Source: Candidatus Thorarchaeota archaeon
GTDB taxonomy: Archaea; Asgardarchaeota; Thorarchaeia; Thorarchaeales; Thorarchaeaceae
Direction: 5' to 3'
DNA length: 64,000 nt
NCBI GenBank assembly: GCA_004376265.1
Contig: SOKL01000197.1
Location: 1,678 to 65,677, forward strand
A program made the position numbers and the translations under genes. Positions 470 through 52,392 of this stretch are shown here, piece after piece (the first letter of the stretch is position 1; every line of letters starts with the position of its first letter). Under the pieces are notes generated by a model. The model ran no database searches. It had not been told where the DNA came from and saw only the letters and a program-made list of their open reading frames with translations.

Positions 470-591
470 TGGTGCGGGAGGTGGGGTTCGAACCCACGAA
501 CTCCTACGAGAGCGGATATCTTATCTGCATGACCCCATGTCTTAATGCGATCTTAAGTCCACCGCCTTTGACCTGGCTTGGCTACTCCCGC
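470..591 (-). tRNA. tRNA-Leu (anticodon UAA) with about 34-nt intron at canonical 37/38 position, CCA encoded
   Basis: Reverse strand reads GCGGGAG-TA-GCC..GGC-G-GTGGA-CTTAAG[intron]A-TCCGC, then a long variable arm, then GTGGG-TTCGAAC-CCCAC-CTCCCGC-A-CCA. It has a 7-bp acceptor stem and a type-II variable arm. Track ORFs 469..657 and 593..784 overlap it and are spurious. Confidence 0.85.
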
Positions 592-697: not shown

Positions 698-806
698 GGT
701 GGGCCGCGCCGGATTTGAACCAGCGACCTTCGATGTCAATGAGCACAAAGCTCGATTGGATTCTCGGTGTAAGCGAGACATCATAGCCGGGCTAGACTAG
801 CGGCCC
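698..806 (-). tRNA. tRNA-Val (anticodon UAC) with about 32-nt intron after the anticodon stem (position 43-45, non-canonical), CCA encoded
   Basis: Reverse strand reads GGGCCGC-TA-GTC..GAT-G-TCTCG-CTTACAC-CGAGA-[ATCCAATCGAGCTTTGTGCTCATTGACATCG]-AAGGTC-GCTGG-TTCAAAT-CCGGC-GCGGCCC-A-CCA. The anticodon arm is intact, and the insertion lies between the anticodon stem and the variable loop. Confidence 0.8.
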
Positions 807-7512: not shown

Positions 7513-8487
7513 ATGACGATTGCAATCCATGAGAGTGCTCTGATTCGTCACTTCAACACACGTAAGGAAGTTCTCAAGACTTGGGAAGAAAGGATTGGTG
7601 CTAGGTTCTCTCCTTTTCGTGGTTTCAAGATGCCAGATAGTCGTCTATACATAGAAGATAGTGACTTCCTTGATTCCATTGTTGACCTAATCATCACAAA
7701 TGAACGACATGTCTTCATCCGAGGTCCGGTGGGGTCCGGAAAGAGCACGTTAATGCTTTTAGCATTACGGGATTTGCCTACGCTAGCGGATCGCAGTGGT
7801 AACAAATTTGTCACTGGCTACGTAGGAATGACAGGTCTTTATGAGAAGCAAATGGCTTCGGCTATTGCTGACTCTCTCAGGATAAAATACAAGAGATCAT
7901 GGGAGTCAAGTCAGATTATCGATGCAGTTGCTAAGGAAAGTCTTCGAAGATATGTGGAAGAAAAGAGTCGGACTGCACTGTTCATTGAGGATGTTGCAGA
8001 TAATCAAGAGGCCGCCTTTCATAAACTAAGATTCCTTGCTGATTTGCCTACCGAGGAGATGATGGATGCATATACAGAAGCTCTTGATGAGCCTATTTTC
8101 ACTCTAGTGATGTCAGGGACCACGATGTATTGGAATGCAATGCTTTCATTCTTACCACAGATAGCTGATCGTACAGAGCCGCTTGATGTTCCACCGCTAA
8201 GCAATGCAAAAGCTAGAGAGTTCATAGGTCGTCGGATTGCATATGCACAAAACAAAATTGACGTCTTTGATCCAGAGAACTACAGTATCTACCCATTTTC
8301 GGATAGTGCTGTGGATGTCATTAATATTGCAACAAAAGGAAACCCTCGAGACATTCGAATGTTAGCACGTGGATGTCAACAAGTAGCAGCGGAGAATCTT
8401 AGGAATTCCGGAAATCCAGATGTGACTAAGGATATCGCTAAACTTGTTTCTGAAGCATACGCAACTTTACTCAGGGAGGTCCACTGA
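7513..8487 (+). CDS. AAA+ ATPase of the ORC/ExeA/TniB-like kind, unknown function
   Basis: Walker A GPVGSGKST, atypical Walker B ALFIEDV, and sensor-2-like GNPRDIRML. Confidence 0.6.
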   Translation: MTIAIHESALIRHFNTRKEVLKTWEERIGARFSPFRGFKMPDSRLYIEDSDFLDSIVDLIITNERHVFIRGPVGSGKSTLMLLALRDLPTLADRSGNKFVTGYVGMTGLYEKQMASAIADSLRIKYKRSWESSQIIDAVAKESLRRYVEEKSRTALFIEDVADNQEAAFHKLRFLADLPTEEMMDAYTEALDEPIFTLVMSGTTMYWNAMLSFLPQIADRTEPLDVPPLSNAKAREFIGRRIAYAQNKIDVFDPENYSIYPFSDSAVDVINIATKGNPRDIRMLARGCQQVAAENLRNSGNPDVTKDIAKLVSEAYATLLREVH

Positions 8488-13220: not shown

Positions 13221-15593
13221 GTGTCTAGGCCTGTGAAAAGAAGAGCTGTAATTCATGTGATTGGTATTGTCCAAGGAGTTGGATTCAGACCTTTCATTTA
13301 TCGAGTTGCACAATCACTATCCCTTACAGGATTTGTGTTGAATCTTGGTAACGCAGGAGTAAAGGTGGTTACAGAAGGTGAAGACGACAAAATTCGGACG
13401 TTGATCAAGTGGATTGAGAGTAAACCACCATCCATATCCCAAGTAGATACAATTGACGTTGTTTGGGAAGATACAAGTAATTCCTTTACGTCATTTGATA
13501 TACTTAAATCAACAACAGTCAGGACTGGAGAATTCACACCTGTATTACCTCCTGACATTGCGATGTGTAATGATTGTGTTGGAGATCTAACTAATTCTGA
13601 TTCACGATGGTATCTCTATCCATTTACATCCTGTACAGCATGTGGACCTAGATTCTCAACCATCACGGACCTTCCATATGACCGTCCAAATACCACAATG
13701 ATTGAGTTTCCACTATGTGATACTTGTAATACAGGTTATACATCGCCTCTCGATCGAAGGTATCATGCTCAAACAACAGCCTGTGAAGCATGTGGACCAA
13801 TCTATAGACTTGTTGATTCTTCTGGAATGAAAATTGAATGCAGTGATTCAGTACTTCAAGTATCACGTTTTATTCAGAAAGGAAACATTGTTGCAATCCA
13901 AGGAATTGCAGGAACTCATATTGTAACCAAGACTACCGATACTAAACCACTAGAACTACTCCGTAAAAGAAAGAGAAGATTTCAACGACCTTTTGCTATA
14001 ATGGTCAAAGACCTCTCTATTCTCAGACAGATTGTTCATATCACTTCTAAAGAAGAAGTCTTGCTTACATCTTGGCGAAGGCCCGTCGTGCTACTTCAGA
14101 AGAAAGATTTGTTCAATTCCAATGTATCATCAATTATACCTAATGATGTCATAGAGTTGATTGCTCCTGAGCTAGATACCATAGGAGTTATGCTTCCTTA
14201 TGCTCCGGTTCATCATCTTCTGTTTCGATACACAACAGAACCAGCCTTGGTGATGACCAGTGCTAATCCTATAGGAGTTCCAATGTATATCGAACCTGAA
14301 GAAATAGTATCTGAGCTTCAAGATATTGTGGATTATTCTCTTGTTCATGATCGTAGGGTGTTCCAGAGAGCTGACGATTCGGTCATCAAAGTCTTGCCTG
14401 ATAGTAATCCAGTATTCATTAGACGAGCCCGAGGATATGTACCCGAACCCCTTCAATTTGAGGGTCCTTGGAAACTAATCAAGGCTATTGCTGTAGGTCC
14501 CGAAGAAAAAGCCACAGCCTCCATATTGAAATCTGAACGTATTTACCCAACTCAACATATCGGGAATATCAGTCGAGTAGAGAGCCTGGATTTCCTTTCT
14601 CATGCAATGAATCACATGCTCCACCTTCTTGATATCAGCAAACTAGATGGAGTAGCTTGCGATTTCCATCCGGAGTTCCTGACTACTGAACTGGCAGAGA
14701 AATTAGCCAATGAACAAGATGTCCCTCTCTTTCGTGTACAACACCATCACGCACACCTTGCATCATTGATAGTGGACCAATCTTTGGACTACGATACGAG
14801 TATTGTTTGTATTACAGCAGATGGATTTGGGTTTGGGATAGATGGACATGCATGGGGTGGAGAGATACTGTTTGGAGATTTGAGAGAGTTCAAACGAGTG
14901 GGAGGAATTATGAGTGTAAATTATCCCGGAGGTGACCTCTCCGCGATATACGCCTCGAGAACAACTCTTGGGATATTGAATGGTCATTTGAATAGAGATC
15001 AGCTTCTCCAAGTGGTAAATGCAGCTCCAATTGGTCTTGATACAATTATGACTTCAAATACTTTGGATATCTTAATAGATACGCTTGATCGGGAAATAAA
15101 CACAATGAACAGCACAAGCGCAGGACGCTTTCTTGATTCTGTGGCCATGGTTCTTGGAGTGTGCTCTGAGAATTCCTATAATGGTGAATGTCCAATGAAA
15201 TTAGAAGCAGTGGCGAAAGAAACAGATTTGCGAGTCGACCCGAAATTTGTGAATACAGAGAATGGTTTGAATCTTGACATATCTGATGCCATGTTACAGT
15301 TCTTAGAGTTACAAAAGAAAGGTATCAGTAAACACGAGATTGCATATGCCGCACAGTGGTACCTTGGCAATTCATTGGCCGACATTGCCTGCAGAGTAGC
15401 GATAGAGAAAGGAGTTGAGTATGTGGGATTCTCTGGTGGAGTTGCGCTGAATCGAATCATTACGAAAGCAGTATTGGATCGTATTAATCAATACAATCTC
15501 AATCCATTAATTCATCTCAATGTCCCTCCAGGTGATGGAGGTATTTCGATTGGACAAGTAGCAGTTGCTGGAGCCAGGTTGGTTGATTCATAG
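13221..15593 (+). CDS. hypF: [NiFe]-hydrogenase maturation carbamoyltransferase HypF
   Basis: GTG start. Acylphosphatase-like N-terminus (VIGIVQGVGFRPFIY), two CxxC-x18-CxxC Zn-finger pairs, a YrdC-like domain and a Kae1-like C-terminus. 790 aa. Confidence 0.9.
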   Translation: MSRPVKRRAVIHVIGIVQGVGFRPFIYRVAQSLSLTGFVLNLGNAGVKVVTEGEDDKIRTLIKWIESKPPSISQVDTIDVVWEDTSNSFTSFDILKSTTVRTGEFTPVLPPDIAMCNDCVGDLTNSDSRWYLYPFTSCTACGPRFSTITDLPYDRPNTTMIEFPLCDTCNTGYTSPLDRRYHAQTTACEACGPIYRLVDSSGMKIECSDSVLQVSRFIQKGNIVAIQGIAGTHIVTKTTDTKPLELLRKRKRRFQRPFAIMVKDLSILRQIVHITSKEEVLLTSWRRPVVLLQKKDLFNSNVSSIIPNDVIELIAPELDTIGVMLPYAPVHHLLFRYTTEPALVMTSANPIGVPMYIEPEEIVSELQDIVDYSLVHDRRVFQRADDSVIKVLPDSNPVFIRRARGYVPEPLQFEGPWKLIKAIAVGPEEKATASILKSERIYPTQHIGNISRVESLDFLSHAMNHMLHLLDISKLDGVACDFHPEFLTTELAEKLANEQDVPLFRVQHHHAHLASLIVDQSLDYDTSIVCITADGFGFGIDGHAWGGEILFGDLREFKRVGGIMSVNYPGGDLSAIYASRTTLGILNGHLNRDQLLQVVNAAPIGLDTIMTSNTLDILIDTLDREINTMNSTSAGRFLDSVAMVLGVCSENSYNGECPMKLEAVAKETDLRVDPKFVNTENGLNLDISDAMLQFLELQKKGISKHEIAYAAQWYLGNSLADIACRVAIEKGVEYVGFSGGVALNRIITKAVLDRINQYNLNPLIHLNVPPGDGGISIGQVAVAGARLVDS

Positions 15594-15616: not shown

Positions 15617-16231
15617 TTACTTGTGTGCTTTTGCCAGTTCAAGTCCTAGTTTTGTAGCTCCAACGTTGACTTTCTCGAATTTCTTTGGAAAAGCATCTTT
15701 TACAACATCCATTACAGTATCTTCAGTCACAGGAATAAGACCGGTACCAATGATTGCTCCTAACATGACCATATTGAGAGACCGGGTGCTACCTGCTTTC
15801 ACAGCCAAGTCTAAGGCATCGAACTCTATGATCTTGTCTGTGAATTTGTTCATGCTTTTGATGATTTCATCATGGGTAGGATATTCTGCATTCCCCATTG
15901 AAACTGCAACGGGGTATTGAACATGAGAGTTCATCAAAACACAACCACCCTGTTTCACAAGGTGAATCTCTCTTAGAGTTTCTACAGGTTCGAAGCCCAC
16001 AAGAAGATGAGCAGAGCCAGGGTCTATAATTGGTCCTCTGGCATTGTCACCAATTCGAACAGTGCAGACAACATGTCCTCCTCGCTGAGCCATTCCATGA
16101 ATTTCACCTACGCGAACGTTGAAACCGCAATGAAGAACTGTCTTTGCTAGAATCTCAGCCAAGGTTAGAACTCCTTGTCCTCCCACTCCTGTGATAGCAA
16201 TATTTACTGTATTACTATTGTTACTCGTCAT
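15617..16231 (-). CDS. iorB: indolepyruvate:ferredoxin oxidoreductase beta subunit
   Basis: NIAITGVGGQGVLT N-terminus. I prefer the ATG at 16231, which has AGGAGGA about 9 nt upstream inside the iorA 3' end. The longer track ORF would overlap iorA. Confidence 0.85.
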   Translation of the reverse strand: MTSNNSNTVNIAITGVGGQGVLTLAEILAKTVLHCGFNVRVGEIHGMAQRGGHVVCTVRIGDNARGPIIDPGSAHLLVGFEPVETLREIHLVKQGGCVLMNSHVQYPVAVSMGNAEYPTHDEIIKSMNKFTDKIIEFDALDLAVKAGSTRSLNMVMLGAIIGTGLIPVTEDTVMDVVKDAFPKKFEKVNVGATKLGLELAKAHK

Positions 16232-16232
16232 T

Positions 16233-18125
16233 CTATGCATCCTCCTGCTTAATCGCACCCTGAGGACAAACAGATGTACAGATACCACATAGGTTGCATT
16301 GGGTTTCATCAATCACAGCCTGTTCGGTTTCTGGATCCATATACATCGCAGGACAAGAGAGTCTGTTAAGACAACGTTTGCATGCATTGCAAATTTCAGA
16401 ATCCACATAGTATTTGGGTAGTGATTCTCCTGTACGGCGACGGTCAGCTGCTTCGAGAAGAGCACAAGGTTCTCTTGAAACTAACACAGCAGGACTATGA
16501 TTCTCTCGAGTCCACTTGACCATCTCACGAACTTCGGCAACCAAGCTCGCCAGAGATTCAAACGGTTCTACTGTCTTGGTATATTTCACACCTAATCCCT
16601 TACAGACCTCTTCAATATCAAGAGGTGGGACCTCCTTTTGCATACCTGTGACTCCAGTACCAGGATGGGGTTGATGCCCAGTCATTGCGGTTGTTCTATT
16701 ATCAAGGATTACGAGACTGATTCGATGTTGGTTATAGACTGCATTAGCAATACCGGGTAGACCTGATGCGAAGAAAGTACTGTCACCTATGGAAGCTACT
16801 ACATCTTGGTCTGTGACTTCCGACAATCCGCATGCTGTCGTAATTGATGATCCCATATCGAACAGAATATCTGCTGTTTCCAATGGTGGAGCAATACTCA
16901 AGGTGTAACAACCAATATCGGTAGGATAGATTGCCTTTCCTCTTGTTGCTACTTTGATTGCATAGTAAGTTGCTCTATGCGGACAACCGGCACAAAGAAG
17001 CGGGGGTCTCGGAGGTAATTCAGGCAAATCATTGATTTTCTGATCCATCTCTTCCCAGTTAATAGGTGTATTACATGTAGTAATCTTACTTAATGCTTCC
17101 ATTACAATCCTTGGACTATACTCATACGTACGTGAGAAAATTCCTTGGTCCTTTCCAAGAATGTCAACTGTAATCTTACTGAGATGAGCTAATCTTCTTG
17201 CATGAGTTTCAAGAAATGGCTCAAGTTCTTCAACAATCATAACTTGCTGATGACGAGCTAGAAATTCGGTGACCATTTTTTCAGGAATTGGATGTGTGAT
17301 TCCAAGCTTCAATACTTCTGCTTTGATTCCCATTGTCAATAGTGCTTCTACAACATGGTTGTATGCCACACCACTTGTGATTATTCCAAGATCTCCCTCG
17401 CCCTCAGTAAAGTTCAATGGACTTTTCTCAGATAGTTCACGTGCGATATCTATCTGTCCAAGAAGCCATGGATGCCGCTTGCGTGCCACAGATGGAATGG
17501 GTACAAAACGAAATGGTTCCTTTTCGAACTCGACCTTGTCAGGACGTGATAAAATCTTTCCAAATGTTACTGGAGCTCGTGTGTGATTCACTCGTGTTGT
17601 TGTACGGAAAAGAACTGGAAGTTCTAATTCTTCTGAGAATTTGAAAGCTTCGAGAAGCATTGACTTTGCTTCTATAGGATCAGCGGGTTCTATCATTGGC
17701 ACATTTCCCATTAATGCATAGTATCTACTATCGTTCTCATTTTGTGAACTCCACATACTTGGGTCATCAGCTACTACAATCACCATTCCTCCACGGACAC
17801 CAACATATGCCAATGAAAAGAATGGGTCTGCAGCGACATTGAGACCTGGACCTTTACAGACCATCATGGATCTCACACCTGCAACAGCAGCTGCGCCGGC
17901 AACCTCTAGAGCAACCTTCTCATTCGTACTGAATTCAAAGTAGAAATTTGGAATATGCGGGGCCATTAATGTCAAATTGTTCCCAATTTCACTATTTGGT
18001 GTACCAGGATAAAGAGCAACAAGTCGAACGCCTGCTTCTAGTACACCTCGCGCAATTGCTTCATTAGCAAGAAGAAGAATCTCCTTTCCTGGTTTATCCT
18101 CAAGAAGTTCCTTTGGCTTCACCAA
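16233..18125 (-). CDS. iorA: indolepyruvate:ferredoxin oxidoreductase alpha subunit (TPP + 2x[4Fe-4S])
   Basis: TTG start. The N-terminus GNEAIARGVLEAGV..YPGTP, a TPP motif GDSTFFASG and C-terminal CxxCxxCxxxCP clusters are present. 630 aa. Confidence 0.9.
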   Translation of the reverse strand: MVKPKELLEDKPGKEILLLANEAIARGVLEAGVRLVALYPGTPNSEIGNNLTLMAPHIPNFYFEFSTNEKVALEVAGAAAVAGVRSMMVCKGPGLNVAADPFFSLAYVGVRGGMVIVVADDPSMWSSQNENDSRYYALMGNVPMIEPADPIEAKSMLLEAFKFSEELELPVLFRTTTRVNHTRAPVTFGKILSRPDKVEFEKEPFRFVPIPSVARKRHPWLLGQIDIARELSEKSPLNFTEGEGDLGIITSGVAYNHVVEALLTMGIKAEVLKLGITHPIPEKMVTEFLARHQQVMIVEELEPFLETHARRLAHLSKITVDILGKDQGIFSRTYEYSPRIVMEALSKITTCNTPINWEEMDQKINDLPELPPRPPLLCAGCPHRATYYAIKVATRGKAIYPTDIGCYTLSIAPPLETADILFDMGSSITTACGLSEVTDQDVVASIGDSTFFASGLPGIANAVYNQHRISLVILDNRTTAMTGHQPHPGTGVTGMQKEVPPLDIEEVCKGLGVKYTKTVEPFESLASLVAEVREMVKWTRENHSPAVLVSREPCALLEAADRRRTGESLPKYYVDSEICNACKRCLNRLSCPAMYMDPETEQAVIDETQCNLCGICTSVCPQGAIKQEDA

Positions 18126-18212
18126 TCACCGATCCTCCATGTTTGGATGTTTCGAGTGAGATTATGAGTAGTGTATCAGTCTTACGGTATTGAATGCGAC
18201 CCTATAATACTT

Positions 18213-18226
18213 GGAACACGTGTTCT
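18213..18226. promoter_or_regulatory. palindrome GGAACACGTGTTCT (copy 1)
   Basis: 12-bp perfect core GAACACGTGTTC, 88-101 nt upstream of the iorA start, followed towards iorA by TATTATAG. Confidence 0.6.
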
Positions 18227-18246
18227 AGTTAGTATTGCGCAGATAA

Positions 18247-18270
18247 GACCCCTTGACTTCCAGTAGAAAG
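18247..18270 (-). promoter_or_regulatory. ORB-like origin recognition box (left, G-run pointing left)
   Basis: Minus strand reads CTTTCTACTGGAAGTCAAGGGGTC: dyad TTTCTA-C-TGGAAG followed by a G-run. Confidence 0.5.
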
Positions 18271-18392
18271 ATCAAAATGAAGTGGCCATCAGCGAGCGTG
18301 TGTATATGCATTATAAAATGGAGATAAGTGACAGCTGTATAAATGATTATAAATACTTTTTGGTATTTAACCGGTTAGACATTTTTTAAATA
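18271..18392. other. candidate duplex-unwinding element between inverted ORB-like boxes
   Basis: 122 bp. Positions 18301-18392 are very AT-rich (tgtatatgcattataaaatgg...ataaatactttttggtatttaa...attttttaaata). Confidence 0.4.
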
Positions 18393-18416
18393 GTTTCTAG
18401 TGGAAGCAAGGGGGTT
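18393..18416 (+). promoter_or_regulatory. ORB-like origin recognition box (right, G-run pointing right)
   Basis: Plus strand reads GTTTCTAGTGGAAGCAAGGGGGTT, inverted relative to 18247-18270. Confidence 0.5.
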
Positions 18417-18427
18417 CAATTGGATTT

Positions 18428-18441
18428 GGAACACGTGTTCT
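18428..18441. promoter_or_regulatory. palindrome GGAACACGTGTTCT (copy 2)
   Basis: Part of the 20-nt ATTTGGAACACGTGTTCTAT, which is repeated exactly 62-63 bp downstream. Confidence 0.6.
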
Positions 18442-18468
18442 ATACTTCTTAGGATCCATTTCGCAACT

Positions 18469-18477
18469 TGTATTACA
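18469..18477. promoter_or_regulatory. TGTAWTACA palindrome
   Basis: TGTATTACA between palindrome copies 2 and 3. Confidence 0.35.
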
Positions 18478-18490
18478 AATAATAACATTT

Positions 18491-18504
18491 GGAACACGTG
18501 TTCT
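18491..18504. promoter_or_regulatory. palindrome GGAACACGTGTTCT (copy 3)
   Basis: Identical 20-nt context to copy 2. It overlaps the stop codon of ORF 18503..18949. Confidence 0.6.
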
Positions 18505-18949
18505 ATCGAATTTCCTGTACAACCTCATAGATCTTGAATTTTAGAATGTCTGCATACATATGAAAAAGTGCGTCGAACTCAAAACGATATTCAAAAGGAA
18601 CCAGTATAGCTGAATCAGCAACAGCCTCTGTACCGGGACATTCATCCATTAGACCTGGTTTTCGTTTCTGTTTGATTCCAGATTTTGTCTTCCAGGAATA
18701 TACATACCCATAGAGTTCCTTTGTAAAAGCAACTCGTCTTGCATTACTTTGTCTTGCATGTCGACAATCATAGAGATACAGATACGAAGTCAATTGAAAC
18801 AACCAAATTAAAGAACACGTGTTCTGATTTTGAGTGCTAGTAATACACCACCAAATACTTGGCCTGCACGGAAAAGTTAAAGGATAAGCAGCTTGGCCCT
18901 TGACATTGTCAACAAAATCTATCAGAAACTTGACTAGGGGGACAATCAA
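18503..18949 (-). CDS. doubtful ORF; only the C-terminal ~90 codons look protein-like
   Basis: The C-terminal part RVAFTKELYGYVYSWKTKSGIKQKRKPGLMDE..FEYRFEFDALFHMYADILKFKIYEVV is plausible. The N-terminal part is W/C/Y-rich and contains palindrome copy 4. No in-frame ATG follows that site, only TTG. Confidence 0.3.
   Translation of the reverse strand: MIVPLVKFLIDFVDNVKGQAAYPLTFPCRPSIWWCITSTQNQNTCSLIWLFQLTSYLYLYDCRHARQSNARRVAFTKELYGYVYSWKTKSGIKQKRKPGLMDECPGTEAVADSAILVPFEYRFEFDALFHMYADILKFKIYEVVQEIR
18812..18825. promoter_or_regulatory. palindrome AGAACACGTGTTCT (copy 4, perfect 14-mer)
   Basis: Read directly, 124-137 nt upstream of the LKR gene start at 18949. Confidence 0.55.
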
Positions 18950-20250
18950 TGAACCGGATTGGACTTAAGAAAGAAGAGAAAGCGTTTGAAACGCGGGTTC
19001 CAGTGGTGCCCGATCATGTCAAATTTCTACATGATAAACATGGCATTGAATTTCTACTTGAACCAAGCACTCAACGTGCTTTCACAGAAGACGAGTACCT
19101 CAATGCAAATGCTAGAATTTTGTCACTAAAGGGTAGTAATACATCAGTGGTTTTGGGAATCAAGGAGATGCCCATTGATTTCTTTGAAGAGAATATAGTT
19201 TACATATTCTTCAGTCACACTATCAAAGGACAGGATTACAATATGCCCATGCTCAAGCGAATAATGGACGTAGGAGCCACACTGATTGATTACGAACGTG
19301 TAATTGATGATAAGGGTCGAAGATTGATCTTTTTCGGAAACTGGGCTGGAATGGCTGGTATTTCGGATACATTTCGTATGCTCGGTGATCGTTTAGAATC
19401 ACAGGGTGTAAAACCCAATCCATTTGCTGATATGAAACCGACCTTTGAACTAGGAGGACTTTCAGAACTGAAGGAGGAATTCGCTGCTCTTGGTAGGCGT
19501 ATCAAAGAACAAGGACTTCCCGAAGAGCTCAAACCATTTGTTATCGGTTTTGCTGGTTATGGTAATGTATCAAAAGGTGCTCAAGAGATATTCGACATAC
19601 TTTCACATGAGGTCATTAATCCAGAAGAACTGGAACATATTCCTCCCAAATCAGACTTACTCTACAAATGTGTCTTCAAGGAAGAACATATGGTTGAACC
19701 CCGAAGCTCTTCTGAACAGTTCGACCTTCAAGACTACTACAAGAATGGAGCAGCAAAATACGTTGGTGTATTTCACAAACACGTTCCCTATCTTACCGTA
19801 TTAATGAATTGCATCTACTGGACAGAAAAGTATCCTAGATTGGTAACCAAGGAATTCATCAAGAATCATTGGAAACAAGAATCTCGAAGGCTCCAGATTG
19901 TGGGGGACATCTCTTGCGATGTTGAAGGTGCTATAGAATTCACCTTGGATTGTACAAAAGCAAACAAACCTGCATTCACATACATAATTAATGAGGATCG
20001 AGCCGAGATAGGTGTCGTAGGTGAAGGTCCAGTCGTGATGGCAGTTGACAATCTTCCAAGTGAGCTTCCACGCGAATCATCCACATCTTTCAGTGAAACA
20101 CTTCTTGACTTTATTCCTGCCTTAGCAAATGCAGATTTCACTGTTCAATTCTCCGAGCTTGAACTACCACGGGAGCTCAAAGATGCTGTAATTGTATATC
20201 AAGGTAAACTAACAGAAAACTATCAATATCTCAGTCAATATATTCCATAG
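18949..20250 (+). CDS. lysine-ketoglutarate reductase-type saccharopine dehydrogenase (L-lysine-forming; LKR domain homologue of eukaryotic AASS)
   Basis: Blocks that I recognise from the AASS LKR half: FFSHTIKGQDYNMPML, GNVSKGAQ, IYWTEKYPRLVT, GDISCDVEGAIEF, DNLPSELP and AVIVYQGKLTENYQYL. Confidence 0.8.
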   Translation: MNRIGLKKEEKAFETRVPVVPDHVKFLHDKHGIEFLLEPSTQRAFTEDEYLNANARILSLKGSNTSVVLGIKEMPIDFFEENIVYIFFSHTIKGQDYNMPMLKRIMDVGATLIDYERVIDDKGRRLIFFGNWAGMAGISDTFRMLGDRLESQGVKPNPFADMKPTFELGGLSELKEEFAALGRRIKEQGLPEELKPFVIGFAGYGNVSKGAQEIFDILSHEVINPEELEHIPPKSDLLYKCVFKEEHMVEPRSSSEQFDLQDYYKNGAAKYVGVFHKHVPYLTVLMNCIYWTEKYPRLVTKEFIKNHWKQESRRLQIVGDISCDVEGAIEFTLDCTKANKPAFTYIINEDRAEIGVVGEGPVVMAVDNLPSELPRESSTSFSETLLDFIPALANADFTVQFSELELPRELKDAVIVYQGKLTENYQYLSQYIP

Positions 20251-20261
20251 GAGGACAACGA

Positions 20262-21578
20262 ATGAAGAAAATACTATGTCTGGGTGCAGGTTTAGTAGCC
20301 CGCCCGTACATCCAATATCTATCAGACAATGATTTCCATGTCATTGTTGCTAGCCGTACAAAAAGTAAAGCTGATCGTCTAATTGAGGGATGCAATAATA
20401 CCGAAGCAGTGGCTTTCAATATTGCAGAAGATGATGAACTTCTTGAGGAGCTTACCAAAAAAGCTGACCTCGTTTGCTCTTTACTACCTTACACATATCA
20501 TGTGAAGGCAGCTAAAGTTGCTATAAAACACAAGACACACTTCTGCACTACATCATACATTTCAGATGAAATGAAGGCACTCGAAAGCGAAGCAAAGAAT
20601 GCTGGTATATTGCTCTTGAATGAATGCGGAGTTGACCCTGGAATCGATCATATGAGTGCAATGAAGATTATCGATGAAGTTCATAATAATAAAGGAAAGA
20701 TTGAAAGCTTCACCTCTTTTACGGGAGGTCTTCCGGCTCCTGATTCAAATAACAATCCTTACGGTTACAAATTGTCTTGGAGCCCACGGGGAGTGCTTCT
20801 TGCTGGCCGCAATGATGCACAATTCCTTCGTGATGGAAAAGAAGTCAAAATCCTTGGTTCTGATCTCTTTAGTAATTATGAACTCATGGAAATCCCTGGA
20901 ATGGGTACATTTGAAGGATATCCGAATCGTGATAGTCTCTCCTACATTAACATTTACGAAATATCAGAAACAAAGACAATGCTTCGTGGGACTTTCAGAA
21001 ATATAGGTTGGTGTGGCACATTAGACAAAATTGCAGACTTGGGTCTTCTAGATATAGAAGAACGATCTCTTGAGGAAATGACATATGCCGACCTCATGCG
21101 AGAACTAACATCAAGCAGTGATTCAGATGTAAAGACTGCAGTTGCGAAGGCTTGTGATATTGAATCTAATGATTCGATTATCGAACGTTTGGATTGGTTA
21201 GGCTTGTTTGAAGAAAAGCAGATTCCTTCAGGCACCAAAACAATCTTAGATGCCCTCTGTAATCTCTTTGAAGAAAAGATGCAGTATGCACCTGGAGAGC
21301 GCGATATGATTGTCATGCATCACGAATTCTTAGTACAATATCCAGACAAGAAACAGAAGATCACCTCTACTCTCATCGACTACGGTATTAAGAATGGAAA
21401 CAGTTCCATGTCAAGGACCGTGGCTCTTCCAGTTGCGATAGCCAGTAAGCTGATTCTAAATGGTGAGATTACCTTGACGGGAGTTCACAGACCCATAATA
21501 CCAGAGATCTATGAACTAATTCTCCAGGAACTGGAAACACTCGATATTAAGATGGACGAAAAAACATTTGATTTGTGA
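20262..21578 (+). CDS. saccharopine dehydrogenase (L-glutamate-forming; SDH domain homologue of AASS)
   Basis: Rossmann motif KILCLGAGLVARP, plus GVDPGIDHMSAMKIID, GGLPAP..NNPYGYKLSWSPRGVL, EGYPNRDS and GERDMIVM. Confidence 0.85.
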   Translation: MKKILCLGAGLVARPYIQYLSDNDFHVIVASRTKSKADRLIEGCNNTEAVAFNIAEDDELLEELTKKADLVCSLLPYTYHVKAAKVAIKHKTHFCTTSYISDEMKALESEAKNAGILLLNECGVDPGIDHMSAMKIIDEVHNNKGKIESFTSFTGGLPAPDSNNNPYGYKLSWSPRGVLLAGRNDAQFLRDGKEVKILGSDLFSNYELMEIPGMGTFEGYPNRDSLSYINIYEISETKTMLRGTFRNIGWCGTLDKIADLGLLDIEERSLEEMTYADLMRELTSSSDSDVKTAVAKACDIESNDSIIERLDWLGLFEEKQIPSGTKTILDALCNLFEEKMQYAPGERDMIVMHHEFLVQYPDKKQKITSTLIDYGIKNGNSSMSRTVALPVAIASKLILNGEITLTGVHRPIIPEIYELILQELETLDIKMDEKTFDL

Positions 21579-21622
21579 TATCAAAACGATGGGGTCTGAA
21601 CATGGGTTCCAATGATCCGAGT

Positions 21623-22249
21623 TCATTCCCCTACTCGCATCTGTATAGCAGCTAATAGTCCCTCGGCTCTCTCTGTTTCTTTCTGGACTTCTACAATTTC
21701 AGTCCTAAGTCGGTATGTATAACCAGAACGATTTCCATATCGTTCTAAATGACCTTTACCATTATTCCACATCCTAGCAAGGTATGTTGATGTAGTGCTC
21801 TTTGGTAGCTTTTCAGTGAATGAATCTTGATATATCTCAGTCACATCTAGTGAGGAGAACTTCCCATGTTTGAAGGATGCATAGATTATCACTTGCATCT
21901 TGTCGTAGTTACTCATTGACTCAAATCGAGTGTCTTCTATTCCAACTTCTGTAATCTCTTCGCTGACTGGTTCAAAGATATATCCAGTACTTGTTTCTAG
22001 GAAGACCTTGAACTTAACAAACATTTCTTCAATACTGCCACCTTTGACCTGAAAACTGGATTCTTCTCCCATCGTTTCATCTGATACAAGGATCTTGAAA
22101 TCAAATGGAGATTCAGTCAAAGCTAGTATTTTGCTGAACCTGTTAAGAGCCTCATCTGGTTTGACATACTTGCACTGAAAGATCTCGCGTAAGCCAGGAG
22201 CTGAGCTATAAGTGAATTCGTAGATATAATTAGTCCTGTCTTCTGTCAA
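21623..22249 (-). CDS. hypothetical protein with C-terminal winged-helix-like segment
   Basis: 208 aa. The C-terminus DVTEIYQDSFTEKLPKSTTSTYLARMWNNGKGHLERYGNRSGYTYRL fits helix-turn-helix plus wing. Confidence 0.45.
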   Translation of the reverse strand: MTEDRTNYIYEFTYSSAPGLREIFQCKYVKPDEALNRFSKILALTESPFDFKILVSDETMGEESSFQVKGGSIEEMFVKFKVFLETSTGYIFEPVSEEITEVGIEDTRFESMSNYDKMQVIIYASFKHGKFSSLDVTEIYQDSFTEKLPKSTTSTYLARMWNNGKGHLERYGNRSGYTYRLRTEIVEVQKETERAEGLLAAIQMRVGE

Positions 22250-22545
22250 ACCTTGTATCTCCTATACTTCTTTCTATTCACAATCAACTATATTCATTTC
22301 GCAAATAAGTGTGAGTATGTGAATTATCTATACCGAGATAAGAGCTACATAATGCGTCTGTACACATATGGGACTCGTCCACCCCGTATTTACTGTGCTG
22401 ACGTCTTGTTCAGTCTATTTGACCATAAAAAAGCATTATGAGCCCTTTTTTCGTCAATTTAACTGGATTCTCCATTCGTTTTCTTATTCACTAATCTATG
22501 GTCCTTGTGAATGAGCAAGTAAGCATTTCATATCTCTTCTTACCC

Positions 22546-22569
22546 GTTTCCAGTGGAAACGAAGGGGTG
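22546..22569 (+). promoter_or_regulatory. ORB-like box GTTTCCAGTGGAAACGAAGGGGTG
   Basis: Perfect dyad CGTTTCC-AGT-GGAAACG followed by GGGG. It matches 19 of 24 positions of the box at 18393-18416 and is closest to the textbook ORB layout. Confidence 0.5.
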
Positions 22570-22735
22570 TGCTTATTCACAGGCACCATAGCACATATCG
22601 TGCCTCCATTCCAGTTCTAAGGCGATAAGATGTTCCGTTTGTTACAGAGTGTTCACAATATTGGCGCCATTCACACAGATGTAGTGTGAATTAATGTAAA
22701 CATGAACAATATGTGAAATCAAAACACGTGTGTGA

Positions 22736-23785
22736 CTACTCCGTAGGGATTAGATAATCAGTGGAACGTTCACCTAGAACAAGCTGCATATACTGATCAT
22801 CATCTCTGTGGTCTGTGACCAATTCAAATCTTCCAAATGCTTCAAACTGAACGCCTGTTGAAACTTGTTCTGTGAATCTACCTCGATAGCTGATAAGCTT
22901 CTCAAGATTTGGTATACTAGTACATTCCACTTGGTATTCACAAGGTGTGAATATAGAATCATTACTGCCTAGCACTTTCCCAGATATTTTTTGATAACCT
23001 CTCATCTGATATGATAAATCACCATAAACATAATCGAGATCAGACTGAGTCTTTACTAACCTAATAAAGAAATGATAATCCCCTATCAAGCCCTGTAACA
23101 TCTTGTTTCTCTCTATTTCTATGAGAAGAGGATGCAAATCAGTATGTGCTTCCCATCTAAACAAAACATGATTCTCGAGTAGTTGCCCTGAATATCTCCT
23201 TACTTCAGGAATATTATCAATCTTCGTACAAATACCAGAGTAAAATTTTCGACACGCAGTTGATCCATAGATTACTAAGTCAATATCTGATTCCTTACCA
23301 GCTACACCTACAAGCTGAGAACCTGTAATTCCAATATTACTCCATTCAATCTCAGTTACTTCTACTAATTTTCTCGCGAGTACAACAGATTCCCTTTCTA
23401 GATGTGTGACCTCATCTGCTTCCCGCATTTGAGCTAAACGATCTACAGGGTCAAGAATTGATTCAATCTTCTCCTCTGAAACTGATTGCACAATCCTTCC
23501 ATGCGGTTCACTGTTCCATAAATACTCAGGGTATTTCTCTCTGAGGTATTTTTCACGCTCATCAAGATCGTACACTTTTTTGAATCCAGTACTCGATGAT
23601 TCTGATGGGACATAACGAAGGTATGCTATAATCCGATTTTCTGGGTGAACTACACCTTTTACCTCAAAGACAAGATTGTCAGAGGTTATGACAAAATATC
23701 CTTCTATAGGACTTTCAAGCACTGTAATCATAGCGGCCAATGTATAGCATGGTATTAAAGCCGCTTGTCTAATTATCCAAATCAT
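22736..23785 (-). CDS. predicted nucleotidyltransferase (Pol-beta-like NTase fold) with C-terminal OB-like domain
   Basis: Motif GITGSQLVGVAGKESDIDLVIYG (G-S...D-x-D). The start may be the ATG at 23731, since 23785 overlaps the divergent start at 23784. Confidence 0.5.
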   Translation of the reverse strand: MIWIIRQAALIPCYTLAAMITVLESPIEGYFVITSDNLVFEVKGVVHPENRIIAYLRYVPSESSSTGFKKVYDLDEREKYLREKYPEYLWNSEPHGRIVQSVSEEKIESILDPVDRLAQMREADEVTHLERESVVLARKLVEVTEIEWSNIGITGSQLVGVAGKESDIDLVIYGSTACRKFYSGICTKIDNIPEVRRYSGQLLENHVLFRWEAHTDLHPLLIEIERNKMLQGLIGDYHFFIRLVKTQSDLDYVYGDLSYQMRGYQKISGKVLGSNDSIFTPCEYQVECTSIPNLEKLISYRGRFTEQVSTGVQFEAFGRFELVTDHRDDDQYMQLVLGERSTDYLIPTE

Positions 23786-27484: not shown

Positions 27485-27619
27485 CTGGAAGTTCCTCACG
27501 GTAAAGGTGTCCGATGCTTTTCAAATATAAAGTGGATAAAAAGCTTGTCTTGTGGAGGACATAGTGGTGCTTTCCAGAAAAGCAATGTCCATAAGTAAGA
27601 CTCACGATTGGGTTTTTGA

Positions 27620-28423
27620 GTGATGGAAGTGGAGCGCACTATTATTGTGAAACTTGGTGGTTCCGTGATTACTCACAAAGGATCATCACCACCTACGACT
27701 AACGATGAGAATCTTTCTCGGATTGCTAAGGAACTAAAGTCATACAAAGGGGGACTTGTTGTGGTTCTAGGAGGAGGAGCTCATGGACACCAATCAGCCC
27801 ATTCACACGGTTTTGGAAATCCCAACACTCCAAAAGAGCAGCTATTGATGGGAATCCCACATATCCGTCATAATATGTCAATCTTAGCACTCAAGGTCGA
27901 ATCAGAGTTAAATAATGAAGGAATCCCCACAATTGTGATTCCACCTTTTACTATTGTAACACTCCGAAACAAATCGATTCAAGACTTTTCAATAACAACA
28001 ATGAAGAAAGCACTAGAGAATGGGTGCGCTGTGGTGATCCATGGGGATGTATGTTTCGATGAAGAAAGAGGTGCATCAATTCTAAGTGGTGACACAATAG
28101 CAGTATTTCTGGCCAGACAGCTCGATGTAAAATCAATATACATAGGCACTGATGTTGATGGGGTTTTAGATGACAATCCAAAACTGAATCCGTCTGCAAA
28201 ACACATTCCCGTAATAGACCATAACAACAAGGAAGATGTCCTCACCAAGACTGGTCCTTCTATGAACACCGACGTCACAGGTGGTATGTCTAAGAAGGTC
28301 AATGAGCTCCTTGAACTTGCGAAACAGGACCTTGATATCATTATCTTCAATTTGACTGTTCCAGGTCGTCTGACTTCATTATTATTGGGGGAGTCTACCA
28401 TTTGTACAAGAATTATGCCTTAG
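27620..28423 (+). CDS. isopentenyl phosphate kinase (amino-acid-kinase fold)
   Basis: IIVKLGGSVITHK and VVLGGGAHGH motifs. GTG at 27620 or ATG at 27623. Confidence 0.7.
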   Translation: MMEVERTIIVKLGGSVITHKGSSPPTTNDENLSRIAKELKSYKGGLVVVLGGGAHGHQSAHSHGFGNPNTPKEQLLMGIPHIRHNMSILALKVESELNNEGIPTIVIPPFTIVTLRNKSIQDFSITTMKKALENGCAVVIHGDVCFDEERGASILSGDTIAVFLARQLDVKSIYIGTDVDGVLDDNPKLNPSAKHIPVIDHNNKEDVLTKTGPSMNTDVTGGMSKKVNELLELAKQDLDIIIFNLTVPGRLTSLLLGESTICTRIMP

Positions 28424-41233: not shown

Positions 41234-41444
41234 ATACTTTTCGTTAGATTTAAGGGAAGATAGACAATTATAATATTGGCGAGTGATGATTGCTATGACC
41301 CCAATGAGTCAGAAATGACGATGATATGGATCTTGAGTTAGGAGCTCGCCATTACTTTCGGCAACCTCCCCTTTGATTATCCATTTAAGCGTACACTCCG
41401 AAAATCCTTTTAAGGTGCATAAACAGAGCTGTTTCTCGACTGTC

Positions 41445-42662
41445 ATGCCTCACGACTATGTTGAAGATGAACTCAGTAGACGTAGCGTATTCAAATCAGA
41501 ACAGTTCTTATCTATCGACTATGTACCAGAGAGTCTTCCTCACAGACAAAATGAAATCAGGGCTCTTGTTCAGAGCTTTAAGACTTTAATCAGCTCCCCA
41601 GGTCAAACAAGCCACAAATTCATCATTGAAGGTCCTGTGGGAACTGGAAAGACTGCGGTTGTAAAACGCTTCTCTGAACAGATGATTCAAGCTGCAAAGA
41701 GGCGTAATATCAGGCTTCACAGTATTCACATTAACTGTCGTGTTAACAAGACAGCATACCTTGTATTCCTTCGAGCGTTAAGAGAATTCGTACCAAAATT
41801 TCCCAGACGTGGACATTCCCCTGATGAGCTTCTTCAAATGCTAGTTGAAGTCCTCGATGAAGAGGATCGATACCTCTTGTTGATTCTTGACGAACTTGAT
41901 TATTTCATCAAACAAAGAGGCGCTGACATACTCTATGACCTAACTAGGATAATGGATGATAGGTTGAATGCAACACAGCGTCTCTCAATCATCGGAATAG
42001 GTCGTGAAATTCCCCTTGATGAAAAAATTCTTGATGCTAGCACACTCAGTACACTCCAACGTAATGTTCTACGATTTTCAAGGTACAATCATGATGCACT
42101 TTCAGACATTCTACGAGACCGTGTAGATATGGCCTTTGAGAAAAAGACTGTTATGGATGAAACAATCCAAGTTATCTGTGATATTGCATCTGGGCATGGT
42201 GATGCACGCTATGCAATTGAGCTCCTATGGCGTGCTGGAAAAAGTGCTGATAGTGACCAAGCAAATGTTGTAATACCCGATTATGCACGTCGTGCTAAAG
42301 CTGACACTCATCCTGAGCTTAGAAAGGAGATTTTTGCATCACTGCCTATGCAACATCAACTTTTGTTGTTGGCAGTAGCAAGGCAACTTAGGGATATTCG
42401 TAGTGCGTATGTCACAATGGGCGAAGTTGAAGAAATGTATCGCTTAATATGTGAAGAATATTATGAAGAACCACGAGCACATACCCAGATTTGGGAATGG
42501 GTCCAAGATCTTCATTCTCATGGGATAATAGATGCAAAGAAATCAAGCACAGGTCAGAGAGGTCAGACTACTCTAATCGGGTTCTCTGATGTTCCAGCTG
42601 AGATGTTAGAACAGTTCCTCTCAGGGTTACTCGATACCTCCAAGGAGGTTGTGAGAAAATAG
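41445..42662 (+). CDS. orc1: Orc1/Cdc6 replication initiator
   Basis: The start is set at MPHDYVEDEL... YVPESLPHRQNEI, Walker A GPVGTGKT, Walker B LLILDELD and the sensor GDARYAIELL are present, with a C-terminal winged helix. Confidence 0.9.
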   Translation: MPHDYVEDELSRRSVFKSEQFLSIDYVPESLPHRQNEIRALVQSFKTLISSPGQTSHKFIIEGPVGTGKTAVVKRFSEQMIQAAKRRNIRLHSIHINCRVNKTAYLVFLRALREFVPKFPRRGHSPDELLQMLVEVLDEEDRYLLLILDELDYFIKQRGADILYDLTRIMDDRLNATQRLSIIGIGREIPLDEKILDASTLSTLQRNVLRFSRYNHDALSDILRDRVDMAFEKKTVMDETIQVICDIASGHGDARYAIELLWRAGKSADSDQANVVIPDYARRAKADTHPELRKEIFASLPMQHQLLLLAVARQLRDIRSAYVTMGEVEEMYRLICEEYYEEPRAHTQIWEWVQDLHSHGIIDAKKSSTGQRGQTTLIGFSDVPAEMLEQFLSGLLDTSKEVVRK

Positions 42663-51107: not shown

Positions 51108-52154
51108 TTAAAATAAAGGAGAATCTTGAACAACTCTCTCAATCAGTTCTTCTGTGTATTGTGTGCATGTTTCGCTCTCAGTGTGGCTATCATCAAACAC
51201 TGAAACTTCTAATCCTGACAATTCTTGAAGGAGGTTCAGAGAGCACATACCCATCACTTCAAGATTATACCCACCTTCCAAAAAACAGGTTATTTTTCCA
51301 TCTGTGTACGATTTAGCCAGTTGGTTCAATCGTGAGTTCATCATCGCAAAACCTGAGGTTGTGAGACCAAGTGAAGTCAACGGGTCTTTGAAATGTCCAT
51401 CATATCCTACTGAAACAAGTATGAATTCGGGTTTATATGACTCAAAGAGGGGATCCAGCACACCGTCAAATACGAGTTCATAGGAAACATCCCCTGCACC
51501 CGGGTACATTGCAAGATTGACAGTATACCCCTTTCCAACACCTTCGCCGATTTCATCTGGAAATCCTGAACCTGGGAAGAGTGATCTTCCATCTTGATGT
51601 AGTCCCATATATAGTACATTGTTAGATGAATAGAATGTACTCTGTGTACCATTTCCATGATGTGCATCATAATCAACTATCATGATCCGTTGCATATTAT
51701 ACTCGTTCAATAGATGTTCTGCAGCTACTGCTATATTGTTGATAAAACAAAATCCAAAGGCTCGTTTGTATTCAGCGTGATGTCCCGGAGGTCTACATAA
51801 TACAAATGCATTGTTCGAATCGCTATGCATAATTCTATCTACAGCCTCAATTCCACCTCCTGCAGCTAGAAGTGCTGCATCATAGGTGTGTGCATTGACT
51901 GCTGTATCCATTGTATAGAAGCCACCCCCTTTCTCTGATTTCTCTCTTATGCCTTCCAAGTAAGTCTCATCATGAATTGGATATATCTTATCCAACGAAG
52001 CTTTCTGGGGTGTTAGGAGATTCACCTGTAGACTTTCTAAAAGACCTGCGGTTGTAAAGGACTTCATAGCACTTCTCAACCGGTCTGGATTTTCCGGATG
52101 TCCTGGAGACATTACATGTTCAACAAATTCATCATGATATACCAAATCGGTCAT
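51108..52154 (-). CDS. histone deacetylase-family amidohydrolase (AcuC/acetylpolyamine deacetylase-like)
   Basis: RPPGHHA, DYDAHHGNGTQ and GGY motifs. Confidence 0.8.
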   Translation of the reverse strand: MTDLVYHDEFVEHVMSPGHPENPDRLRSAMKSFTTAGLLESLQVNLLTPQKASLDKIYPIHDETYLEGIREKSEKGGGFYTMDTAVNAHTYDAALLAAGGGIEAVDRIMHSDSNNAFVLCRPPGHHAEYKRAFGFCFINNIAVAAEHLLNEYNMQRIMIVDYDAHHGNGTQSTFYSSNNVLYMGLHQDGRSLFPGSGFPDEIGEGVGKGYTVNLAMYPGAGDVSYELVFDGVLDPLFESYKPEFILVSVGYDGHFKDPLTSLGLTTSGFAMMNSRLNQLAKSYTDGKITCFLEGGYNLEVMGMCSLNLLQELSGLEVSVFDDSHTESETCTQYTEELIERVVQDSPLF

Positions 52155-52222
52155 TGACTATCTATTGCGAGGAAGATACTGATAAGTTTAAAGTCGTACT
52201 CAATTAATCCTCAGACGTAATT

Positions 52223-52236
52223 GGAACACGCGTTCT
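52223..52236. promoter_or_regulatory. palindrome variant GGAACACGCGTTCT (copy 5)
   Basis: Flanks TTGGAACACGcGTTCTAA match copies 1-3 with one substitution. It lies 69-82 nt upstream of the deacetylase start at 52154. Confidence 0.5.
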
Positions 52237-52283
52237 AAGAGTGGCAATGTTTATCTTTAGTTTGAGTTACGGCAATTAATCAC

Positions 52284-52392
52284 GGGTCGGTAGTCTAGCT
52301 TGGTATGATTCTTGCTTGGGGCGACTGAGGAAGTCAAACCTCAAGTCACAGAATGCAAGAGACCGGGAGTTCAAGTCTCCCCCGGCCCACCA
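52284..52392 (+). tRNA. tRNA-Pro (anticodon GGG) with 32-nt intron at canonical 37/38, CCA encoded
   Basis: GGGTCGG-TA-GTC..GAT-T-CTTGC-TTGGGG[intron]T-GCAAG-AGACC-GGGAG-TTCAAGT-CTCCC-CCGGCCC-A-CCA. Confidence 0.85.

Follow-up and report, generated by a model that had tools for sequence, protein, structure and literature searches.

A conserved palindrome beside a predicted replication origin in Thorarchaeota and other Asgard archaea, with two linked uncharacterised proteins

The stretch analysed here, referred to as the window, comprises 64,000 nucleotides of contig SOKL01000197.1 from a Candidatus Thorarchaeota archaeon (assembly GCA_004376265.1) and contains repeated copies of a 12-bp perfect palindrome, GAACACGTGTTC, most of them clustered between iorA and an LKR-like gene. 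On one side of the cluster lie the genes for HypF, IorB and IorA, and on the other the LKR-like gene, a gene for saccharopine dehydrogenase (SDH), a gene for a winged-helix protein and a gene for a nucleotidyltransferase-like protein (Table 1). The copies, designated PAL1 to PAL5, had been described in an earlier note as an operator family, with a shared amino-acid/acyl-group catabolic regulon and an accessory origin-binding factor as the two readings offered. The positions listed there, four for the exact 12-mer and one for a one-mismatch copy (GAACACGCGTTC) near the deacetylase gene of the HDAC family, were reproduced, TTGGAACACGCGTTCTAA being located at 52221-52238. The claim that the five-fold recurrence lies beyond chance was confirmed, as five window matches at no more than one mismatch compared with a mean of 0.19 and a maximum of 3 in 100 dinucleotide-preserving shuffles, none of which reached five. 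The 14-mer GGAACACGTGTTCT, under which the family had been named, held for three copies, in which it is exact, but not for copy 4, which reads AGAACACGTGTTCT, or for copy 5, which carries a central mismatch.

Table 1. Features of the window around the palindromes and the predicted origin
Feature	Coordinates	Strand	Description
HypF gene	13221-15593		
iorB and iorA	15617-18125	-	
PAL1	18214-18225	none	GAACACGTGTTC; extended form TTGGAACACGTGTTCTAG
ORB1	18248-18270	-	minus strand reads CTTTCTACTGGAAGTCAAGGGGT; compared with CTTCCAGTGGAAACGAAAGGGGT
DUE	18271-18393	none	123 bp between the inverted ORBs
ORB2	18394-18415	+	TTTCTAGTGGAAGCAAGGGGGT; inverted relative to ORB1
PAL2	18429-18440	none	GAACACGTGTTC; 13 bp outside the G-string end of ORB2
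PAL3	18492-18503	none	GAACACGTGTTC; at the 3' end of the small gene, one-base overlap with its stop codon
Small gene	18503-18793	-	96 aa; transcribed towards the origin; between PAL3 and PAL4
PAL4	18813-18824	none	GAACACGTGTTC; 125 bp upstream of the LKR start codon
LKR-like gene	18949-20250		AlaDh/PNT-type
Saccharopine dehydrogenase gene	20262-21578		
Winged-helix gene	21623-22249	-	208 aa; leading candidate palindrome binder
ORB3	22546-22568	+	GTTTCCAGTGGAAACGAAGGGGT; near-perfect consensus; intergenic, upstream of the winged-helix gene
Nucleotidyltransferase-like gene	22736-23785	-	349 aa; weak signature, no family assignment; conserved in Thorarchaeota
orc1/cdc6	41446-42662	+	initiator gene; true start ATG 41446 (MPHDYVEDEL...)
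PAL5	52224-52235	none	one mismatch; between the HDAC-family gene 51108-52154 (-) and a divergent intron-containing tRNA 52284-52389 (+)

The 20-mer ATTTGGAACACGTGTTCTAT is common to copies 2 and 3 (18424-18443 and 18487-18506), and the small gene is framed by an imperfect inverted repeat of 36 nt that has PAL3 and PAL4 at its inner ends. PAL1 lies 22 bp to the left of the first origin recognition box (ORB1), with the iorA start codon 94 bp downstream of it, and a TATA-like AGTATTATAGG directly adjoins it on the iorA side. Around the small gene a further motif, TGTAWTACA, was seen as TGTATTACA at 18469-18477, 23 nt outside PAL3, and as its mirror AGTAATACA at 18839-18847, 23 nt outside PAL4; in three species it stands farther from PAL3 by an insertion of 11 bp, one turn of the helix, and its role may be that of a promoter element or of an additional binding site. 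Two weaker candidates, a two-mismatch site at 21598 and a degenerate site, AAACACGTGTGT, at 22724, were seen in none of the other loci and lacked conservation in other species, respectively.

Comparison loci were fetched with the LKR gene as query, which gave 41 loci from Thorarchaeota and 39 from Thermoplasmata and bacteria. While the former contained 131 matches at no more than one mismatch in 751 kb, the latter contained none in 613 kb. The palindrome recurs three to four times upstream of LKR at the same relative positions in the 41 Thorarchaeota loci, and its flanks drift. When 11 species were aligned, variation touched 0-2 of the 12 core columns of a site, as against 14-19 of the 24 flanking columns, and PAL1 was invariant; over 35 Thorarchaeota species PAL1 and PAL2 had mean identities of 0.99 and 0.97 and were the most conserved blocks of the 900-bp region. 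A position matrix extended the site to an 18-bp palindrome, TTRGAACAYRTGTTCYAA. A conserved core within drifting flanks is the phylogenetic footprint expected of a binding site for a two-fold-symmetric protein and not of a mobile repeat. The comparison thus supports the proposal of an operator-type family, that is, of predicted protein-binding sites kept by strong purifying selection. The origin region was the sole cluster of palindromes in about 1 Mb of Thorarchaeota DNA, and only three kinds of locus outside it carried a site (HDAC, isopentenyl phosphate kinase (IPK), and one intragenic position).

The cluster surrounds what we predict to be a replication origin. Between PAL1 and PAL2 lie two inverted boxes, ORB1 and ORB2, around an AT-rich DNA unwinding element (DUE) with an A+T content of 69% and a peak of 80%, compared with 59% for the window. 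The boxes were identified by comparison with the published archaeal ORB consensus CTTCCAGTGGAAACGAAAGGGGT (PMC4153887) and a second published form, GTTCCAGTGGAAAC-AAA----GGGGG (PMC1868953). When held against the definition of an ORB, an asymmetric dyad of about 22 bp with a G-string, ORB1, ORB2 and ORB3 matched and the palindrome GAACACGTGTTC did not. ORB2 was variable in 2 of 22 columns in the 11-species alignment, and the gap between ORB2 and PAL2 was 12-13 bp in 24 of 26 Thorarchaeota species, the distance from PAL1 to ORB1 being more variable. The context of the sites therefore fits targets of an accessory origin-binding factor, as had been suggested, since the palindromes flank a canonical ORB-DUE-ORB arrangement.

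Further elements were observed in and around the predicted origin. A motif, AAAATGGAGAT, at 18315-18325 in the middle of the DUE has an identity of 0.90 over 35 Thorarchaeota species, and its position recalls that of ucm in Sulfolobus. Nearly all Thorarchaeota loci keep ORB3, some 3.6 kb downstream from where LKR starts, and around it (22250-22735) lie nine GTGAA/TTCAC repeats, mostly in the form TGTGAAT/ATTCACA, where about 1.4 would be expected from their density across the window. Analogous clusters of repeats stand beside ORBs in two loci from other Asgard lineages, GTGAAT at 4992-5500 in L082 and GTTAAC at 5446-6000 in L086, and such repeats may be iterons or a second group of binding sites, for an unassigned factor. 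No RNA family was detected in the origin region when Rfam was scanned over the whole window and, with permissive settings, over 18126-18948.

The open reading frame at 18503-18949, which the earlier note had called doubtful, proved to hold a real and conserved gene of this module, of shorter extent than given there. In the interval 18503-18793, variable columns by first, second and third codon position numbered 33, 27 and 89 of 96, with no periodicity in a non-coding control interval; the start codon alternates between TTG, GTG and ATG from species to species, and tblastn found the product in 38 Thorarchaeota loci. Taken together, the codon-position bias, the alternating start codons and the tblastn matches identify it as a protein-coding gene. 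PAL4 precedes the start codon of this gene by a fixed 19-22 bp in Thorarchaeota and stands some 50 bp ahead of the promoter-like block that is conserved at LKR; PAL4 thus belongs to the small gene.

The 96-aa product has an isoelectric point (pI) of 8.9 (8.7-9.8 in the family), and its N-terminal half holds 11 lysine and arginine residues against 2 aspartate and glutamate residues, a net charge of +9. All of its 180 homologues are annotated as hypothetical and none has a Pfam hit, and a scan of all 47 family members against Pfam and NCBIfam gave no match. An exhaustive profile search of 1.84 billion representatives returned 15 clusters only of the family; two long apparent relatives from this search, P0133 and P0135, were rejected as repeat-driven artefacts. 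The family is confined to Asgard archaea and is always adjacent to an origin. An AlphaFold2 model (pLDDT 91) has a ferredoxin-like fold that includes an invariant helix, NARR..FTK, and a basic beta-hairpin. Foldseek returned weak and generic ferredoxin-like matches (Cas2, 5h1o, with a TM score of 0.46-0.50; CutA and PII with E of about 0.04) and a viral structure library gave nothing; as the matches were weak and generic, no function was assigned from the fold.

The association between palindrome and origin extends beyond Thorarchaeota. In four other Asgard lineages the small gene stands beside orc1/cdc6 and the gene for the small subunit (DP1) of DNA polymerase D, which is the classical setting of an archaeal oriC, and divergent clusters of the small protein came from other Asgard metagenome-assembled genomes (MAGs), one labelled Jordarchaeales and another Promethearchaeota. 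The ORB-DUE-ORB arrangement is present in these other lineages and copies of GAACAYRTGTTC abut the ORBs. Their number and placement differ: TTAGAACATATGTTCTAA stands on both sides in L082; in L086 (Jordarchaeales) one ORB is adjoined by two tandem copies, and a perfect GAACACGTGTTC follows at some distance; in L089 an ORB-like box lies between two copies; and in L081 a single copy stands on the promoter of the small gene, 13 bp from the start codon. Across lineages the half-site AGAACA does not vary, and the central two base pairs alone do. The small gene points towards the origin in Thorarchaeota, L081, L082 and L086 but not in L089. In Jordarchaeales and two other Asgard lineages, sites stand by ORB boxes with unrelated genes on their flanks. 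As AGAACA sites, an ORB origin and the linked genes are kept together across lineages, the stable association of the sites is with the origin and not with amino-acid catabolism.

This bears directly on the proposed catabolic regulon, for which we found no support. In a divergent Thorarchaeota locus, L074, the module of palindrome, small gene, palindrome, ORB-DUE-ORB, palindrome and iorA is intact, and LKR/SDH lie 6 kb away with no palindrome upstream, so that the module has moved as a unit away from LKR. Together with the unrelated genes at the origins of Jordarchaeales and two other Asgard lineages, and with the assignment of PAL4 to the small gene, this speaks against LKR/SDH as a common target. 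The LKR-like gene itself has its best relatives in Thorarchaeota MAGs, at 60-81% amino-acid identity.

Sites were nevertheless also conserved at a few genes elsewhere. A scan of metagenomes with the HDAC protein returned nine loci, which is enough to judge the conservation of the fifth site though not a census; all eight Thorarchaeota HDAC loci recovered had a site at the equivalent position, and in a strain with a 99% identical HDAC it is a perfect palindrome. In one subclade a site lies between the genes for ribosomal protein S10 and IPK (L020:18673, L027:18673, L026:14662, L059:14710 and L038:8828), about 20 bp downstream of a conserved TATA-like GGATAAAAAGG promoter block. The IPK orthologue of the window (27520-27620) keeps this block and has no palindrome. 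Two related species carry a perfect palindrome within the coding sequence of the 349-aa gene. A palindrome-like 12-mer inside orc1 in three species (L095-L097) was discarded, being explained by coding conservation of the residues RTLVQ.

The statement that no regulator gene is obviously attached to the sites did not hold, as two conserved candidates, the winged-helix protein and the 96-aa protein, travel with them. The former had been named in the earlier note as a possible DNA-binding protein and was found to be a conserved part of the module: it is 83-95% identical within Thorarchaeota, compared with 60-81% for LKR, and homologues stand beside the origin in all five Asgard lineages examined. 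The 208-aa protein of the window had no Pfam hit above threshold; its own match was to CopY_TcrY only and weak (E 0.14), while representatives of three of the five lineages gave sub-threshold matches of the C-terminal domain to PF03965 (Penicillinase_R), with E-values of 2.5e-4, 4.5e-3 and 1.1e-2. When a family profile was searched against PDB sequences, BlaI (1SD4, 1XSD) and MecI (1OKR, 1SAX, 1SD6) ranked first, aligned over the recognition helix and wing. Members of the BlaI/MecI/CopY family bind as dimers to TACA-N2-TGTA dyads, with an operator given as TACANNTGTA and later refined to RNYKACANNTGTMRNY (PMC7253601). The palindrome has the same dyad geometry, its core being ACA-N2-TGT. The likeness has limits, in that the winged-helix protein has an extra N-terminal domain and a different domain order, no Cys-rich metal site and no BlaR/MecR partner were seen, and the sites stand at a replication origin instead of a resistance or copper operon. 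On balance, the protein at 21623-22249, as a putative remote relative of BlaI/MecI/CopY, is the probable binder of the palindrome.

With moderate confidence, we thus read TTRGAACAYRTGTTCYAA as the predicted operator of a dimeric factor belonging to an origin module conserved in Asgard archaea, with the winged-helix protein as its likeliest binder. Both the identity of the binder and the effect of binding are things we infer from the arrangement of sites and genes. A two-fold-symmetric dimer would occupy palindromes on both outer sides of the inverted ORBs. On PAL4 it would cover the small gene's core promoter or start site and so presumably repress the gene; on PAL1 it would sit at the iorA promoter, abutting the TATA-like element; and on PAL2 it would stand beside ORB-bound Orc1. 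From PAL2 and PAL3, which separate the 3' end of the small gene from ORB2, the bound factor could block transcription into the origin; alternatively, it may modulate Orc1/MCM at ORB2 through the fixed spacing of 12-13 bp. The same factor would also act at a few other promoters, notably that of the HDAC-family deacetylase gene. A fuller version, in which a BlaI/MecI-like winged-helix dimer and the 96-aa protein clamp both sides of an Orc1-bound origin via the palindrome and couple initiation to transcription of the flanking genes and of HDAC, as an Asgard-specific module, is put forward tentatively, and we would hold it to be possible and somewhat doubtful.

Several observations weigh against assigning the sites to an origin factor of this kind. 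GC skew over the 64 kb was uninformative and the origin call is a prediction; orc1/cdc6 lies 23 kb from the ORB cluster in this genome. The conserved sites at the HDAC gene, and at IPK in one subclade, indicate that the factor is not exclusive to the origin. The similarity to BlaI/MecI is sub-threshold, the best PF03965 score being 21.8 bits against a gathering cut-off of 22.6, and the E-values for BlaI/MecI in the PDB profile search were 0.02-0.5. The AlphaFold2 model of the winged-helix protein is poor (pLDDT 53). No palindrome is conserved upstream of the winged-helix gene itself, and the palindrome (TRGAACAYRTGTTCYA) differs at its outer positions from the refined 16-base CopY operator RNYKACANNTGTMRNY, only the ACA-N2-TGT core being in agreement.

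A less probable alternative is that the 96-aa protein itself binds the palindrome as a dimer, repressing its own promoter and acting at the origin as a small nucleoid or origin protein with sequence specificity, in function like UBP at the ucm of Sulfolobus. Its gene is bracketed by two sites, one of them close to the start codon in Thorarchaeota (19-22 bp) and in L081 (13 bp), and the protein is basic (pI 8.7-9.8 across the family, +9 in the N-terminal half), has an invariant NARR..FTK helix and a basic hairpin, and belongs to a family found only in Asgard archaea and always next to the origin. There is also a precedent for a small basic beta-hairpin protein that binds an origin motif (PMC12141716). 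However, the fold is ferredoxin-like, its best structural matches (Cas2, CutA and PII) are weak and include no sequence-specific DNA binder, no similarity to UBP was detectable, and the 96-aa gene has no upstream palindrome in L086 or L089. The probability not taken up by these two proteins falls to some other binder.

We consider it unlikely that the palindrome is the ordinary transcription-factor operator of a metabolic regulon (iorAB, LKR/SDH, HDAC and, in some clades, IPK), with its proximity to the origin a by-product of gene order. Sites do stand in the promoter regions of iorA, the small gene, HDAC and, just downstream of the TATA-like block, the IPK of one subclade; the HDAC site is kept in 8 of 8 loci, and iorA keeps a site beside it in Thorarchaeota, in L074 and in the L082 lineage. 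Yet LKR/SDH loses its site in L074, the sites of Jordarchaeales and L089 abut ORBs amid unrelated neighbours, the window's IPK orthologue has the promoter block without the site, and neither the fixed gap between ORB2 and PAL2 (24 of 26 species) nor the three to four sites per origin would be needed for one promoter. Palindromes in several copies clustered at an origin also resemble bacterial parS, and a 16-18 bp palindrome with a CACGTG centre might suggest a centromere-like cluster for chromosome segregation. This seems very improbable, as Pfam found no ParA/ParB/SegAB-type gene among nearly all window reading frames of at least 120 aa, the half-site differs from that of parS, and a conserved site also lies 34 kb away at the HDAC promoter. 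A mobile repeat, of the kind of a miniature inverted-repeat transposable element (MITE), or a hairpin or terminator acting at the RNA level, is scarcely credible. The 20 nt common to copies 2 and 3 and the 36-nt inverted repeat ending at PAL3 and PAL4 could be taken in its favour; however, no dispersed copies were found in about 1 Mb of Thorarchaeota sequence, there was no Rfam match, and the core is kept as a DNA palindrome even where the transcribed orientation differs. A longer mobile repeat would have conserved flanks beyond those seen in the window, and instead the flanks drift at orthologous positions in about 40 species, a conservation by which the mobile-repeat reading appears effectively refuted.

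The 12-mer fits GAAC-N4-GTTC and is in this respect like the LexA (Cheo) box of Firmicutes, and literature matches to exact 12-mers in a binding-site context came only from papers on Firmicute SOS/LexA and phage SPbeta, the others being unrelated. Here, though, the host is archaeal, conservation extends to positions 5-8 and the TTR flanks, none of the neighbours is an SOS gene, and no LexA/S24 peptidase domain was found among nearly all reading frames of at least 120 aa in the window. CtrA at Cori of Caulobacter, and IHF and Fis at oriC of Escherichia coli, bind the origin as well as a regulon. They resemble the present case as single sequence-specific factors with several origin sites and further sites at unlinked promoters, and differ in the proteins, the domain of life and the unrelated initiator, so that the likeness is one of analogy only. 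IHF and Fis are discussed in PMC12141716, which describes what is, by analogy, the closest functional counterpart, the ucm/UBP system of Sulfolobus origins. There too, a short conserved motif other than the ORB stands at an ORB-DUE-ORB origin and has further genomic sites elsewhere, and its binder is not Orc1 but UBP, a small lineage-restricted protein. The further sites of that system number in the hundreds, in the manner of a nucleoid protein; for the palindrome, about 1 Mb of Thorarchaeota sequence gave the three non-origin loci named above. Whereas ucm occupies the middle of the DUE, halfway between the ORBs, and binds UBP as a monomer, the sites here are perfect palindromes outside the ORB pair. 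Profile searches with both linked proteins against PDB sequences gave no match to UBP (9EFD-9EFF) at E<=10, and UBP was absent from the top 50 Foldseek matches of the 96-aa protein.

Other parts of the window are recorded here for completeness. The mechanically called reading frame of orc1/cdc6 starts at TTG 41373, and cross-species conservation places the start at the ATG given in Table 1. The gene heads a replisome cluster that runs to 51102 and encodes the large and small RFC subunits, GINS, MCM and Hel308, followed by the HDAC-family gene. In other Asgard lineages the ORB cluster adjoins orc1; in this genome the region upstream of orc1 has no ORB box. Between a tRNA-Gly gene and orc1, a conserved non-coding element of 73 nt (41278-41350) has a terminal stem, GGCGAGC/GCTCGCC, and two GATGA boxes; it is near-identical in five Thorarchaeota loci, with an RNA fold z of -2.4 and no Rfam match at the gathering threshold, and may be a C/D-box-like small RNA. 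The tRNA opposite the HDAC gene scored 48 bits against the tRNA model and was detected only in a local permissive Rfam search; like two other intron-containing tRNAs, at 473-591 (-) and 700-806 (-), it is found by the Rfam model and missed by ARAGORN. A 324-aa P-loop ATPase (7513-8487, +) has weak matches to AAA_22, AAA_16 and NB-ARC and a very weak one to the orc1/cdc6 family (E 0.013), and genes for similar ATPases lie near the origin in L081. A Roadblock/LC7-domain protein (59287-60234) is encoded near an Arf/Ras-like small GTPase (61168-61749), a typical Asgard pairing of eukaryotic signature proteins.

Literature searches found no description of cis-elements at Asgard origins or of this palindrome motif in archaea. 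Accessory protein-binding elements at origins are of a known kind; the palindrome, conserved across Asgard classes and with two uncharacterised linked proteins, looks like an undescribed case of it. For annotation, the analysis restores a real 96-aa gene and leaves a lysine-catabolism regulon unsupported. For the biology of the group, it provides a predicted Asgard origin, an additional element at fixed spacing from an ORB, and two conserved uncharacterised proteins linked to it. The authors of PMC12141716 ask whether other archaeal lineages hold factors analogous to UBP, which is the sole comparable case that we found. If the factor predicted here does modulate Orc1/MCM, the archaeal lineage nearest to eukaryotes would possess an accessory origin factor.

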